This document shows positions 8,787 through 12,250 of a DNA stretch of 31,058 bases, one piece after another. The DNA is taken from contig CALKWZ010000080.1 in NCBI GenBank assembly GCA_938003985.1, positions 1 to 31,058 of the forward strand, read 5' to 3'. The first letter of the stretch is position 1; each line of letters opens with the position of its first letter. The notes under the pieces were generated by a model that searched no databases, was not told where the DNA came from, and saw nothing but the letters and a program-made list of their open reading frames with translations. The position numbers and the translations under genes were made by a program. This DNA comes from an uncultured Verrucomicrobiota bacterium (GTDB lineage Bacteria > Verrucomicrobiota > Kiritimatiellia > CAIQIC01 > Lenti-01).

Positions 8787-8836
8787 TTGACGGCCGTTCG
8801 GACCACGCCTATATTTCGCCACATAACGAATCGTTA
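8787..8836 (+). promoter_or_regulatory. Candidate sigma70-type promoter and operator for arsR-hgcAB-arsC
   Basis: TTGACG at 8787-8792, a 17-nt spacer, TATATT at 8810-8815. A 13-bp palindrome TAACGAATCGTTA at 8824-8836 lies between the predicted TSS and the AAGGA RBS. Confidence 0.5.
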
Positions 8837-8845
8837 AGGATGGCC

Positions 8846-9214
8846 ATGAAGGACGCCGTTAAAATATTCGGGGCCTTGTCGGACGAAAGCCGGCTGCGCA
8901 TGCTGTTCGCGCTGCGCCGCGGCGAGCTGTGCGTCTGCCAGCTCATCGGGCTGTTGGGCCTGTCGGCCTCCACGGTGTCGAAGCACCTTTCGATCCTCCG
9001 CGATGCAGGCTGGGTGGATGCTCGCAAGCAGGGCCGCTGGGTCTACTGCCGCATGGCGGACCAGCCCCCCTTGCCCGTCATGGGAAAACGGGCCGCTCCA
9101 CTTTTCCAAGCGCTGCAACGTTCGCCGAAGGTGAAGGCGGACGACCGGCAGTTGCGGTCCATCCGGAAAATGGACGGGGAACGGCCGTGCCGGAAACTCT
9201 CCCGCAAGCCGTGA
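8846..9214 (+). CDS. arsR: ArsR-family As(III)-type metalloregulator (copy 2)
   Basis: MKDAVKIFGALSDESRLRMLFALRRGELCVCQLIGLL..STVSKHLSILRDAGWV. Canonical ELCVCxL metalloid site. An alternative ATG lies at 8840. The stop TGA at 9212-9214 overlaps the hgcA start. Confidence 0.9.
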   Translation: MKDAVKIFGALSDESRLRMLFALRRGELCVCQLIGLLGLSASTVSKHLSILRDAGWVDARKQGRWVYCRMADQPPLPVMGKRAAPLFQALQRSPKVKADDRQLRSIRKMDGERPCRKLSRKP

Positions 9215-10224
9215 GCGCGCCCGATACATCCCGCTGCCCGCGCGTATCGTCCGCCTGGACCTGGCGGGACCGCCTCGGCGCCGTCGGCGTCCGCCTGGGA
9301 TTTCGCCGCATGCGGTATGCCATCCGGCCAGGGCTATCTGCGCTCGGCCACCCCGGCCCGGAGTCGCCCGTGTTCGTGACGGCGAACTACAAACTGTCCT
9401 TCGACCATCTGCGCCGCGCGCTGGCAGGCATCGATGGGTGGATCCTCGCGCTCGACACGAAGGGCGTGAACGTCTGGTGCGCGGCCGGCGAAGGGAATTT
9501 CAGCACGGAGGAACTGGTGCGCCGGCTGCGCGACGTGCAACTGGACCAAGTGGTTTCCCACCGCAATCTCATTCTGCCGCAACTGGCGGCGCCCGGCGTG
9601 AATGCGTTCGAAGCGACGAAGTTGTCGGGATTCCGCGTGGTCTATGGTCCGGTCTACGCCCGGGACCTTCCCCGTTTTCTGGCGGCCGGCTGCACCGCAA
9701 CGACCGACATGAGACGCGTCCATTTCCGCTGGCATGAGCGGCTGGCCGTGGCGCCGCTGGAACTGGTCATCCATTTCAAACGGGCGTTGCTCGCGGGCCT
9801 GGCATTGGCTCTTCTCGCGGGCATTTCTCCCGCCGGCTTTTCCTGGAGCCGAATGACATCCTTGGGTGGCTTGGCTCTCGCGTTATGGGTGGCCGCCTAC
9901 GTCCTTGCGGGCCTCCTCGGCCCCTTGCTCTTGCCGTGGCTGCCCATGCGCGCCTTCGCGCTCAAAGGCGCCGCGCTGGGCGCGGCGCTCGCCGCCGCCG
10001 GTCTGGCGACCTTCGGCGCATCGTGGCCTTTCCTCCGGATGGCGGCCTGGCTGCTGCTCGTCGCCACCGGAACTTCGTTCCTGCTTCTGAACTTCACGGG
10101 CTGCACGACGTTCACTTCGCCCTCCGGCGTCCGGCGCGAAGTCCGCTGGGCGCTCCCGGCGCAGTCGGCGGGCGCGGCCATCGGTCTCGCGGCTTGGGCG
10201 CTGGCGGGCTGGCAAATGCCATGA
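9211..10224 (+). CDS. hgcA: HgcA-like corrinoid protein (mercury methylation protein family)
   Basis: The GTG at 9211 overlaps the arsR stop; the start could also be GTG 9187. N-terminal RLGAVGVRLGFRRMRYAIRPGLSALGHPGPESPVFVTANYKLSFDHLRRAL. Cap-helix LDTKGVNVWCAAGEG, Cys at residue 90 of this model. Five C-terminal TM helices. Followed by hgcB. Confidence 0.85.
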   Translation: MSAPDTSRCPRVSSAWTWRDRLGAVGVRLGFRRMRYAIRPGLSALGHPGPESPVFVTANYKLSFDHLRRALAGIDGWILALDTKGVNVWCAAGEGNFSTEELVRRLRDVQLDQVVSHRNLILPQLAAPGVNAFEATKLSGFRVVYGPVYARDLPRFLAAGCTATTDMRRVHFRWHERLAVAPLELVIHFKRALLAGLALALLAGISPAGFSWSRMTSLGGLALALWVAAYVLAGLLGPLLLPWLPMRAFALKGAALGAALAAAGLATFGASWPFLRMAAWLLLVATGTSFLLLNFTGCTTFTSPSGVRREVRWALPAQSAGAAIGLAAWALAGWQMP

Positions 10225-10541
10225 AATATCTGTCGGACCAAATCAGCCTGCGATTGGATGCCGGGCGTTGCATTGGCTGCGGCCTGTGCGAAACGGTTTG
10301 CCCCCATGGCGTGTTCCTCGTTCAGCGGGGAAAAGCGCAGATCCGGGATCGCGACGCCTGCATCGAATGCGGGGCGTGCGCGCGGAATTGTCCCGTCGAC
10401 GCCATCGCCGTCGACAGCGGCGTCGGCTGCGCCCAGGCCATCATCAACGGCTTGCTGACGGGCCAGGAAACCTGCTGCGGCGAACGTTCCTGCTGCGGCG
10501 CGAAACCAACGGAAAAACGCCGGGCGGGATTGATCCCATGA
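10221..10541 (+). CDS. hgcB: HgcB-like 2x[4Fe-4S] ferredoxin
   Basis: The ATG at 10221 overlaps the hgcA stop (ATGA). CIGCGLCETVCP and CIECGACARNCP clusters (the C(M/I)ECGA signature). Internal GVGC cysteine. Cys-rich tail ETCCGERSCCG. 106 aa. Confidence 0.85.
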   Translation: MKYLSDQISLRLDAGRCIGCGLCETVCPHGVFLVQRGKAQIRDRDACIECGACARNCPVDAIAVDSGVGCAQAIINGLLTGQETCCGERSCCGAKPTEKRRAGLIP

Positions 10542-10969
10542 CAACCAGGATCCTTTTCCTGTGCACCGGCAATTCCTGCCGCAGCCAGATGGCCGAAGGC
10601 TGGGCCCGCGCCCTCAAGGGCGACCGGATCGACGCCTTCTCCGCCGGCATCGAGACCCACGGCCTCAATCCCCGCGCCGTGCAGGTCATGGCCGAGGCGG
10701 GCGTGGACATCTCCGGCCACCGTTCCAAGACCGTCGCGGACCTGCCGACGAAGGACTTTGACTACGTCGTGACCGTCTGCGACCACGCCCACGAGTCCTG
10801 CCCCCTCTTCCCCGGCAACACCAAGGTGGTCCACGTCGGCTTCGACGATCCCCCGCGGCTGGCCAAAGGGGCGAAGACCGAGCAGGAAGCCCTTGCCCAC
10901 TATCGCCGCGTCCGCGATGAGATCAGAGCCTTTATCCAAACCTTGCCGGAGAGTTTGAAGGAAAGATGA
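10538..10969 (+). CDS. arsC: Arsenate reductase, LMW-PTPase/thioredoxin-coupled type
   Basis: The ATG at 10538 overlaps the hgcB stop (ATGA). ILFLCTGNSCRSQMAEGW P-loop (CX5R). Downstream VTVCDHAHESCP cysteines. 143 aa. Confidence 0.9.
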   Translation: MTTRILFLCTGNSCRSQMAEGWARALKGDRIDAFSAGIETHGLNPRAVQVMAEAGVDISGHRSKTVADLPTKDFDYVVTVCDHAHESCPLFPGNTKVVHVGFDDPPRLAKGAKTEQEALAHYRRVRDEIRAFIQTLPESLKER

Positions 10970-11056
10970 CCACAGAGATCACAAGCAACACGGAGAAACG
11001 GCCGCGAACAACTCTGCGCCCCTCTGTGTAGCCTGCGGTTGAACAGGAGTCCGACC

Positions 11057-12250
11057 ATGACCTGCAGCCCCGCATCGACCGAATCGCGCAAACTGACCAA
11101 CCCCTTCGAGCGCTATCTGACCGTCTGGGTCGCGCTGTGCATCGCCGGCGGCATCCTGCTCGGCAAAATCGCCCCGGGTCTGGCCAAAACCCTCGATGGC
11201 ATGTCCCTCTTCGTCAACGGCGCGCCCGTCGTCTCCATTCCCATCGCCATCTGCCTGTTCTTCATGATGTATCCCATCATGGTGAAGATCGACTTCGCTT
11301 CGGTCATCCAGGCCGGCAAAAGCGGCAAGCCCGTTTGGCTGACGCTGTTCGTCAACTGGGCCATCAAGCCGTTCACGATGTACGCCATCGCGTACTTCTT
11401 CCTGGGCTTCGCCTTCAAGGCGTTCATCGGCACGGAAGCGCTGGACCTCGTCAAAATGCCCTTTGGCCTCGACCTGCCCGTCGGCGCGGAACACGGCGCC
11501 GGCACGGTGGTGCTGGTCGATGGCATCAAGATGCTTCAGGTCCCGCTCTGGCGCAGCTATTTCGCGGGCGCCATCCTGCTGGGCATCGCCCCCTGCACCG
11601 CCATGGTGCTGGTCTGGGGCTATCTGGCGAAGGGCAACGACGGCCTGACCCTGATCATGGTGGCCATCAATTCGCTGACGATGCTCCTGCTCTATGGCCC
11701 GCTGGGCGGATTCCTGCTGGGCGTCGGCCGCCTCCCCGTCCCCTGGCAGGCCTTGCTGCTCTCCATCGCCATCTACGTGGCCCTGCCGCTCGTCGTCGGC
11801 TACTTCTCCCGCAAGTGGATCCTCGCCGCCAAGGGCGCAGCCTGGTTCAAGGAAAAATTCCTCCATGTCCTCACGCCGATTACGATCATCGCCCTGCTGA
11901 CGACGCTGGTCCTGCTGTTCAGCTTCAAGGGCGAGACGATCCTCGGCAATCCGCTGACCATCCTGTGGATCGCGATTCCCCTGTTCATCCAGACCATGCT
12001 GATCTTCTGGCTGGGCTATGGGTGGGCCCGGTTGCTGAAGCTGCCCTATCGCGACGCCGCGCCCGCCGCGATGATCGGCGCCTCGAACCACTTCGAAGTC
12101 GCCATCGCCACCGCCACCATGCTCTTCGGCCTGTCCTCCGGCGCGGCCTTGGCCACCGTGGTGGGCGTCCTCATCGAAGTGCCCGTCATGCTGGGACTGG
12201 TGCGCATCTGCACCCGCACGGCGCACTGGTTCCCGCCTGCCGCCGAATAG
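11057..12250 (+). CDS. acr3: ACR3-family arsenite efflux transporter
   Basis: Track ORF begins at TTG 11039; the ATG at 11057 has an AGGAG RBS. Motifs [37 protein letters not shown] and EVPVML are typical of ACR3/ArsB(Acr3). Confidence 0.92.

Follow-up and report, generated by a model that had tools for sequence, protein, structure and literature searches.

hgcAB within a putative ArsR-controlled arsenic resistance operon of a Kiritimatiellia bacterium

Methylation of Hg(II) is the only activity that has been demonstrated for the HgcAB family. Here, we describe an hgcAB pair that lies among arsenic resistance (ars) genes in an uncultured Verrucomicrobiota bacterium of the class Kiritimatiellia (GenBank contig CALKWZ010000080.1), of which a stretch of 31,058 nucleotides was analyzed (the window; all coordinates are positions in it). 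Five plus-strand genes follow one another within 8787-12250 in the order arsR-hgcA-hgcB-arsC-acr3 (Table 1). Their arrangement indicates that hgcAB is a structural part of an operon headed by ArsR, and therefore the pair is probably expressed with the arsenic response. An earlier note, made from the letters of the sequence alone, had described an arsR with an ELCVCQL motif, three stop/start overlaps, an 87-nt gap and an AGGAG preceding acr3, all of which are present at the positions given there or a few bases off.

Table 1. Features of the operon (upper rows) and of its surroundings (lower rows); scores are bits against the named family models.
Feature	Position	Strand	Evidence or remark
Sigma70-like promoter TTGACG-17-TATATT	8787-8815	+	Sole sigma70-like match in 8300-12700 (consensus scan)
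Candidate ArsR operator, inverted repeat ATTTCG-N8-CGAAT	8813-8831	+	Starts inside the -10 hexamer, spans the expected transcription start
arsR, ArsR/SmtB repressor, 124 aa	8840-9214	+	PF01022 60.4; NF033788 91.1 (cut-off 55); alternative ATG 8846
hgcA, corrinoid protein	9211-10224	+	NF040863 394.5 (cut-off 275)
hgcB, dicluster ferredoxin, 106 aa	10221-10541	+	NF040864 116.4 (cut-off 99)
arsC, thioredoxin-coupled arsenate reductase of the low-molecular-weight protein tyrosine phosphatase (LMW-PTP) type, 143 aa	10538-10969	+	PF01451 77
arsC-acr3 spacer, 87 nt	10970-11056	+	Shine-Dalgarno AGGAG 11045-11049, 7 nt before the acr3 ATG
acr3, arsenite efflux permease, 397 aa	11057-12250	+	TIGR00832 367.2 (cut-off 282.8)
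Perfect 20-bp palindrome ATATACACAT/ATGTGTATAT, candidate operator	5037-5056	+	After TTGACA 5030-5035, 9 nt before the first arsR
Upstream arsR	5066-5374	+	PF01022
ArsP_1-family permease, CSC pair at residues 97/99	5384-6760	+	PF03773 226.8
ArsE-family thioredoxin-like protein	6775-7008	+	TIGR00412 101.1 (cut-off 62)
Membrane-anchored thioredoxin (trx)	7016-7612	+	PF00085
CcdA/DsbD_TM protein	7609-8310	+	PF02683
ArsF-family protein	8307-8753	+	NF040494 88.9 (cut-off 60)
Na/Pi cotransporter-PhoU genes, three in tandem; the first (873 aa) carries a fused PstS-like phosphate-binding domain	12338-18719		Downstream of acr3

HgcA and HgcB, which the note had named from their motifs, both score above the curated cut-offs of their family models. 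HgcA does not cluster with corrinoid iron-sulfur protein (CFeSP) or with non-methylating paralogs, a possibility that the note had raised: its scores against the non-methylating fused HgcAB-like family NF043039 (200.1 bits, cut-off 285) and the CdhE model NF003195 (66.4 bits, cut-off 306) are both below the respective cut-offs. No solved HgcA structure was found in a structure comparison, where the nearest solved relative was the CFeSP large subunit (2h9a), matching residues 36-156 with E = 5e-12. This subunit (2h9a, 4c1n, 4djd) is the nearest solved homolog of HgcA's corrinoid-binding domain but has no cap-helix cysteine, no membrane domain and another partner. HgcA shares 62 invariant columns with 23 homologs, all of them intact, and its Cys90, within the invariant N87-V88-W89-C90-A91-A92, is the equivalent of Cys93 of Pseudodesulfovibrio mercurii ND132, the proposed corrinoid ligand. 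For the C-terminal part, in which the note had counted five transmembrane helices, a Kyte-Doolittle profile gives four strong hydrophobic segments above 1.5 (at about 183-212, 215-246, 248-266 and 274-299) and a weaker fifth at the C-terminus, all after residue 180; together with conserved residues that align with those of homologs, this agrees with a membrane domain of about five helices.

The cap helix differs from that of most relatives. The note had quoted it as GVNVWCAAG, and those letters are present, but it missed that the next residue is Glu, replacing a conserved Lys: the sequence (window 9478-9510, residues about 90-100) reads NVWCAAGEGNF against a homolog consensus of NVWCAAGKGTF. 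Among the 120 best homolog clusters, about 105 have Lys at this position and only 8 have Glu, all in the closest subclade (71-100% identity). We read the Glu as a variant rather than as decay, because the ligand Cys and the 62 invariant columns are intact and the Glu is kept within the subclade; Hg methylation by the variant is predicted only. The high-stringency hgcA definition of Hg-MATE allows six motifs, all ending in GK (N[VI]WC[AS][AGS]GK; PMC10087281). NVWCAAGE is not among them, and this HgcA passes only the bit-score ("moderate") criterion, so that motif-based high-stringency screens would drop the whole Glu subclade. It was considered whether the Lys-to-Glu change tracks ars linkage, and this was rejected: two ars-linked relatives (L001 and L161, see below) keep Lys, and Glu occurs only in the closest subclade.

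HgcB has two CX2CX2CX3CP motifs, CIGCGLCETVCP and CIECGACARNCP, beginning at residues 17 and 47. It also has CIECGA, Cys70 in GVGC (the Cys73 equivalent) and two CC pairs in the tail (Cys85/86 and Cys91/92), so that every feature listed for it in the note can be read in the protein. Family model, adjacency to hgcA, both cluster motifs, the C(M/I)ECGA sequence, the Cys73 equivalent and the C-terminal cysteines all agree with its being a genuine HgcB. In a separate observation on the family, a natural fusion of 479 aa (P0109) was seen that carries an ArsE-type thioredoxin-like domain (PF13192) at the N-terminus of HgcA, which hints at a functional tie between the small redox protein and HgcA.

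The three remaining proteins are those of an ordinary ars operon. ArsR has its best solved matches in SmtB and CadC, as expected for a winged-helix repressor, and homologs with 57-69% identity head arsR-arsC-acr3 operons. Its motif ELCVCQLIG contains the first two cysteines of the R773-type As(III) site (ELCVCDLC, with Cys32, Cys34 and Cys37) but not the third. The CVC pair is kept in hgcA-linked homologs, and so, in most of them, is a C-terminal Cys (..LCR(R/K)L or ..PCRK..), which might complete the site. ArsC scores 153.1 bits against TIGR02691, the pI258-type equivalog, which is below the cut-off of 174.3. It has Cys9 in a CX5R loop (CTGNSCR) and Cys81 and Cys88 in VCDHAHESC, matching the disulfide relay of pI258 ArsC (Cys10/82/89). 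It is 74-78% identical to ArsC of related loci, and Acr3 is 87% identical to Acr3 of three of them (L038 and L081/L161).

For comparison, 160 hgcA loci were taken from genome and metagenome collections together with contigs of the closest proteins, and their neighbours were tabulated by tblastn (loci are designated L001 and so on); relatives lacking hgcAB were found by an ArsR protein search, from which contigs were picked by their length alone. The promoter that the note had proposed has no competitor in the region scanned (Table 1), where terminator-like sites are not in excess over shuffled sequence (5 found, 3.8 expected). Upstream of arsR in L001, L081/L161, L162, L090 and L098, both its -35 and its -10 hexamer have aligned counterparts, and a matching promoter also precedes arsR in L164-L168, which have no hgcAB. 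The inverted repeat at 8813-8831 has the position and form expected for an operator of the ArsR/SmtB family. The pattern ATTTCG-N7-9-CGAAW matches once in the window against 0.21 expected and occurs in 32/168 fetched loci. The repeat is kept as ATTTCG-N8-CGAAAT upstream of arsR in relatives with or without hgcAB, becoming a perfect 9-6-9 palindrome in L165. The combination TTGAC-N17-TATATTTCG..CGAAAT is thus common to loci of both kinds. ArsR would be expected to bind this repeat because of its position, palindromy and conservation, and hgcAB here would then be under the ordinary ars repressor of the lineage. In L081 (7817-7835) and L161 (7735-7753), where extra genes part hgcB from arsC, a second copy of ATTTCG-N8-CGAAAT lies just 5' of arsC, which suggests two units under one ArsR. 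Another palindrome of the window, TAACGA-A-TCGTTA (8824-8836), was rejected as the operator, for it is not kept in relatives; the conserved element is one step upstream. A scan of the whole window with Rfam, covering for example a cobalamin riboswitch near hgcA, gave no match at gathering thresholds. Bacteroidales-type loci (L048, L067, L140 and L142) also have the operator motif, there adjoining genes for ArsE-type thioredoxin or acr3.

How are the five genes joined? Three 4-nt stop/start overlaps connect the first four: the arsR TGA (9212-9214) overlaps an in-frame GTG at 9211 that opens hgcA (GTGA, 9211-9214), and ATGA forms both the hgcA/hgcB junction (10221-10224) and the hgcB/arsC junction (10538-10541). 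A second in-frame GTG at 9187 would give an HgcA of 345 aa instead of 337 aa, and it is the start chosen, along with 8846 for arsR, in the public gene call for L163, a contig that is 100% identical; both hgcA start candidates overlap arsR and both are kept in relatives. None of hgcA, hgcB and arsC has a good Shine-Dalgarno sequence of its own, which fits translation by re-initiation. The spacer before acr3 contains neither a promoter-like site nor a plus-strand terminator-like site in our scan. A long, imperfect hairpin there (10960-11060, -30.3 kcal/mol) that includes the acr3 ribosome-binding region was set aside as marginal (z = -2.0), and the spacer itself is not kept: in L001, arsC and acr3 abut or overlap. 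The similar lengths of four spacers, 8754-8839 (86 nt), 10970-11056, 12251-12337 and 14960-15046 (87 nt each), suggested a repeated element, but alignment shows no homology and the resemblance seems to be a coincidence. At the sequence level the five genes thus have what a single transcription unit should have: a lone promoter without any terminator inside the unit, coupled junctions and a gene order kept across genomes. The overlap geometry alone is unremarkable, because genes of an operon commonly overlap by 4 nt (as do trx/ccdA and ccdA/arsF of the window); what gives it weight is its conservation across relatives.

This conservation is seen in several loci, as the note had suggested checking. 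In L001, a Kiritimatiellia metagenome-assembled genome (MAG) whose HgcA is 63% identical, the order arsR-hgcA-hgcB-arsC-acr3 recurs with three ATGA overlaps, checked in the open reading frames (ORFs) and in the sequence. In L081/L161 (HgcA 75% identical) and L162 (71%), the first two of these overlaps (arsR/hgcA and hgcA/hgcB) are retained and extra genes stand before arsC, among them in L161 a bona fide arsM (NF008823, 353.7 bits). The whole island order arsR-arsP-arsE-trx-ccdA-arsR-hgcA-hgcB-arsC-acr3 is found in L091 and L095 (52-56%), and L169 (ArsR 77% identical) also has hgcAB. In this collection of the HgcAs most similar to the query, arsC or acr3 lies on the same strand within 6 kb of hgcAB in 30/71 loci with enough flank. 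Linkage differs among HgcA clusters: two Planctomycetes-Verrucomicrobia-Chlamydiae (PVC) clusters have it in 11/13 loci, with the order arsR-hgcAB-arsC-acr3; two that include Bacteroidales MAGs in 35/47, mostly as arsC-hgcAB-acr3; and the largest cluster in 0/35. Smaller groups add several ars-linked loci with acr3-hgcAB, or with a divergent acr3-arsR beside hgcAB. As judged from gene order, hgcAB is clearly often linked to ars genes; this linkage goes along with HgcA clades and comes in several independent arrangements, at least three or four gene orders. Mutual exclusion of arsM and hgcAB, which was also considered, is rejected by eight loci that hold both (L081/L161, L038, L009, L011, L078, L114 and L126). 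The cysteines of the HgcB tail were compared since a three-thiol As(III) site might need more of them, and no signal was found between ars-linked and unlinked loci (means 5.6 and 5.1, Mann-Whitney p = 0.30). As to HgcB itself, the apparent "long HgcB" of L161 (342 aa, 5796-6824) is HgcB run together with a Cys-rich single-pass membrane protein of 216 aa ending in GCGPSxGxGCCPK, which is a separate gene before dsbD in L162 (11592-12260) and L170 (5382-6032) and has no family match on record.

The relatives without hgcAB bear on how the arrangement arose. Six contigs (L164-L168 and L171) whose ArsR is 57-69% identical have arsR-arsC-acr3(-arsM) or arsR-acr3 with hgcAB absent, and in all but L167 this operon stands behind an arsR-arsP-arsE-trx-dsbD block. 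The canonical arsR-arsC-acr3 operon (L164, L166, L167, L168 and L171) resembles that of the window in its homologous ArsR, its promoter and ATTTCG-N8-CGAAAT operator, its upstream block and the overlap of the arsR 3' end with the next gene. It differs in having no hgcA or hgcB, so that arsC directly follows arsR. A further contig, L170 (ArsR 72%), has arsR, the 216-aa Cys-rich membrane protein, dsbD, arsC, arsM and acr3, which equals the operon of L161 once hgcA and hgcB are taken away; its 216-aa protein shares 61% identity with the C-terminal part of the L161 "long HgcB" and 58% with the separate L162 gene. Judged by these operons, hgcAB is a facultative two-gene unit at one position, directly after arsR, in an otherwise conserved ars operon. 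As the general form is arsR-arsC-acr3, insertion would be simpler to assume than loss.

Together with another ArsR-headed operon that precedes it on the same strand (5066-8753; Table 1, lower rows), the operon makes up a larger arsenic island, of which it is the second half. This upstream block precedes arsR in L091, L095, L163, L164, L165, L166, L168, L169 and L170, whether hgcAB is present or not, and different long palindromes occupy the place of the 20-bp palindrome in L164 and L168. Every NCBIfam match of the permease is below its cut-off. The window ORFs that were scanned include no integrase or transposase, and arsM is absent from the window; GC content and GC at third codon positions (GC3) are uniform across the island, giving no compositional sign of a recent transfer of hgcAB. 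In L169 (2797-3168) and L170 (3319-3708) a DGC-domain (PF08859) protein, missing from the window, stands between the ArsE-type thioredoxin and the thioredoxin. On the other side of acr3, the Na/Pi cotransporter genes suggest a possible connection between phosphate and arsenate, but they were rejected as part of the conserved unit since they adjoin hgcAB in no fetched locus at >=50% coverage. Two other features of the window are unrelated to the operon: a 1189-aa ORF with a solute-binding domain (SBP_bac_1) and an ABC permease domain (21891-25460), and a partial minus-strand ORF with bacterial TSP3 repeats (1-1239).

The hgcAB-ars link has already been published, and the present locus is a further instance of a known phenomenon. 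Regions in which hgcAB is flanked by acr3, arsC, arsM and arsR were shown in diverse MAGs (McDaniel et al., 2020, mSystems, PMC7438021, Fig. 6), and arsR with acr3/arsC near hgcA was shown mainly in Kiritimatiellae (Peterson et al., 2025, ES&T, PMC11984097, Fig. 4c). The presence of ars genes near hgcAB was also noted by Gionfriddo et al. (2020, 2022/2023), and a rice-paddy study repeated the neighbourhood analysis. The statement of the note that linkage "goes further here" therefore has to be withdrawn: the neighbourhoods of McDaniel et al. (2020) and Peterson et al. (2025) contain the same genes, hgcAB with arsR, arsC and acr3, come from the same bacterial group and have an arsR-like gene immediately preceding hgcA, and nothing in them is different in kind. 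Its statement that an ArsR-like regulator adjoins and is co-transcribed with hgcAB in ND132 agrees with the literature: an ArsR-family gene (arsR2) lies directly upstream of hgcA-hgcB there and is co-transcribed with them (Goni-Urriza, 2020; Gionfriddo et al., 2022/2023), and ArsR has been shown experimentally to control hgcAB and to respond to arsenic (Gionfriddo et al., 2022/2023, 10.1101/2022.10.17.512643). Unlike the present locus, ND132 has no ars structural genes beside hgcAB. Its ArsR-HgcAB, ArsR-Acr3-ArsC and ArsR-ArsP-ArsE-DGC units are scattered in the genome and co-induced by arsenic, whereas their equivalents are gathered here in one 7.3-kb island with hgcAB inside the arsC-acr3 operon. 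The ArsR5-ArsP-ArsE-DGC operon of ND132 has the DGC protein, as have the L169 and L170 islands and unlike the window, and the ND132 regulator is described with a four-cysteine motif, in contrast to the CVC and C-terminal Cys of ArsR here. In lake metatranscriptomes, the presence of arsR goes with lower hgcA/gyrB ratios (Peterson et al., 2025, PMC11984097). What is added here is incremental: the conserved junction geometry, the finding that hgcAB may be present or absent right behind arsR, an operator shared between such loci, the gathering of the island in one place and the Lys-to-Glu subclade.

We consider it likely that these five genes form an arsenite-derepressible operon of a high-GC Kiritimatiellia/Lentisphaerae (PVC) bacterium, in which a genuine hgcAB has been inserted right after arsR of a standard arsR-arsC-acr3 operon. 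An outline of its working would be as follows: an ArsR dimer on ATTTCG-N8-CGAAT, a repeat that shares bases with the single promoter's -10 hexamer, would block transcription until As(III) binds the CVC pair, possibly with the C-terminal Cys, and ArsR is released, as in other members of the family. From the one mRNA, hgcA, hgcB and arsC would be translated by re-initiation at the GTGA/ATGA overlaps and acr3 from its own AGGAG. ArsC would reduce arsenate and Acr3 would export arsenite, as expected for their families, and the membrane corrinoid protein HgcA and the ferredoxin HgcB would be made whenever the arsenic response is on. The note had gone on to make HgcAB a stoichiometric part of this response. 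Operon membership is borne out by gene order, overlaps and the shared promoter and operator, but "stoichiometric" is not supported, because an overlap favours coupled translation and not a fixed ratio.

Several points weigh against this account. The operon is predicted from sequence, and a consensus scan may miss a weak promoter inside it, such as one in the spacer before acr3. ArsR has only two of the three R773-type cysteines, and CVC also occurs in Cd/Pb/Zn sensors such as CadC, so that As(III) as the inducer is drawn only from the operon content and the ND132 experiments. The direction of the change at the arsR junction is judged from a comparison of operons, and repeated loss of hgcAB would be an alternative. 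The linkage counts, coming from a sample biased to the HgcAs most similar to the query, are no global frequencies. Finally, Lys-to-Glu in the cap helix leaves even the Hg-methylating activity of this HgcA a prediction.

What, then, does HgcAB do in an arsenic operon? One answer is that linkage is a by-product of island assembly: hgcAB would be a mobile two-gene cassette that settles in arsenic islands, hot spots of acquired metal genes, where it keeps a role unrelated to arsenic, in Hg handling or something else, and responds to arsenic incidentally. The patchy presence of hgcAB at a single junction among close relatives speaks for this, as do the HgcA clades with zero ars linkage (0/35), the position of hgcAB in ND132 away from ars structural genes, and the poor prediction of methylation by hgcAB transcript level. 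However, tight overlaps on both sides kept at 63% identity imply that the insertion is old and maintained, the linkage has independent origins in at least three or four gene orders, and neither base composition nor the ORFs scanned for integrases and transposases give a sign of recent transfer; we regard this explanation as unlikely, while allowing it a real share of our belief. Somewhat less probable in our judgement is that hgcA here is a diverged, non-methylating variant whose function has changed or been lost with the cap-helix Lys. NVWCAAGE does lie outside the six Hg-MATE motifs, the charge is reversed where about 105 of the 120 best homolog clusters keep Lys, and no culture test of any organism of this clade was found in the literature consulted. 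Yet the score of HgcA is far above the equivalog cut-off and that of the non-methylating fusion family, the corrinoid-ligand Cys and the 62 invariant columns are kept, and hgcB is intact with every functionally important Cys. Moreover, conservation of the Glu over the closest subclade (8 clusters) points to selection and not decay, and the literature describes several substitutions in the ND132 cap helix with which activity is retained.

The note had suggested another answer, that HgcAB may work on arsenic, for example by corrinoid-dependent methyl transfer to As(III). The product might then leave through a permease such as the ArsP-family protein encoded upstream, and Hg methylation would be a side reaction. 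Methylcobalamin can methylate arsenite both in chemical reactions and in extracts of methanogens. The literature acknowledges that the native role of HgcAB is unknown, and its conserved place between the repressor and arsC inside an ars operon speaks for such a role. Linkage in differing gene orders across HgcA clades argues for selection on linkage, and upstream there is an ArsP_1-family permease bearing a vicinal CSC pair, yet arsM is missing from the window. ArsM, the arsenite methyltransferase dependent on S-adenosylmethionine (SAM), is the methylating component of ars clusters under ArsR and would be the functional analogue of HgcAB in the proposed role, although it has an unrelated fold and uses SAM instead of corrinoid and ferredoxin. 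HgcAB is no simple replacement of it, as a bona fide arsM stands beside hgcAB in L081/L161 and in six further loci. The results with ND132 point both ways: an hgcAB knockout is described in the abstract of the ND132 work as more sensitive to As(V), whereas the summary of the paper speaks of no significant loss of arsenic resistance without hgcAB, and no mono- or dimethylarsenicals were produced while hgcAB was arsenic-induced. The HgcB tail has no higher number of cysteines in ars-linked loci (p = 0.30), membership in the ArsP family does not fix the substrate of a permease whose NCBIfam matches are below cut-off, and a literature search found no report of arsenic methylation by HgcAB. The evidence leans mildly against this role, and we think it quite improbable. 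A more specific form of it, to which we give the least credence, would make HgcAB of the ars-built lineages an arsenic/antimony enzyme, a corrinoid-dependent and ferredoxin-driven methyl transferase to a thiol-bound metalloid that acts alongside ArsC and Acr3 or ArsP, with Hg methylation again as a side reaction; the Lys-to-Glu subclade could then mark further tuning of the metalloid activity.

HgcAB is the only known route to methylmercury, and the question of its native function is an old one, to which arsenic is the leading published lead. The ArsR-headed operon described here is an unusually clean instance of the connection, with one promoter, one recognizable operator and five genes, in which hgcAB stands between the repressor and arsC. 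Since operons that lack nothing but hgcAB are available as natural comparators, it offers a convenient construct for asking how arsenite relates to methylmercury, how hgcAB affects arsenic tolerance and speciation, and what the Glu variant does. Kiritimatiellia-type bacteria made up about 65% of hgcA gene abundance in the one lake studied (Peterson et al., 2025, PMC11984097). Our best guess is that HgcAB here is still a methyl-corrinoid transferase to a thiophilic metal or metalloid, and we think that it has been recruited into, and retained in, the arsenic islands of several lineages since it is useful under soft-metal(loid) stress.

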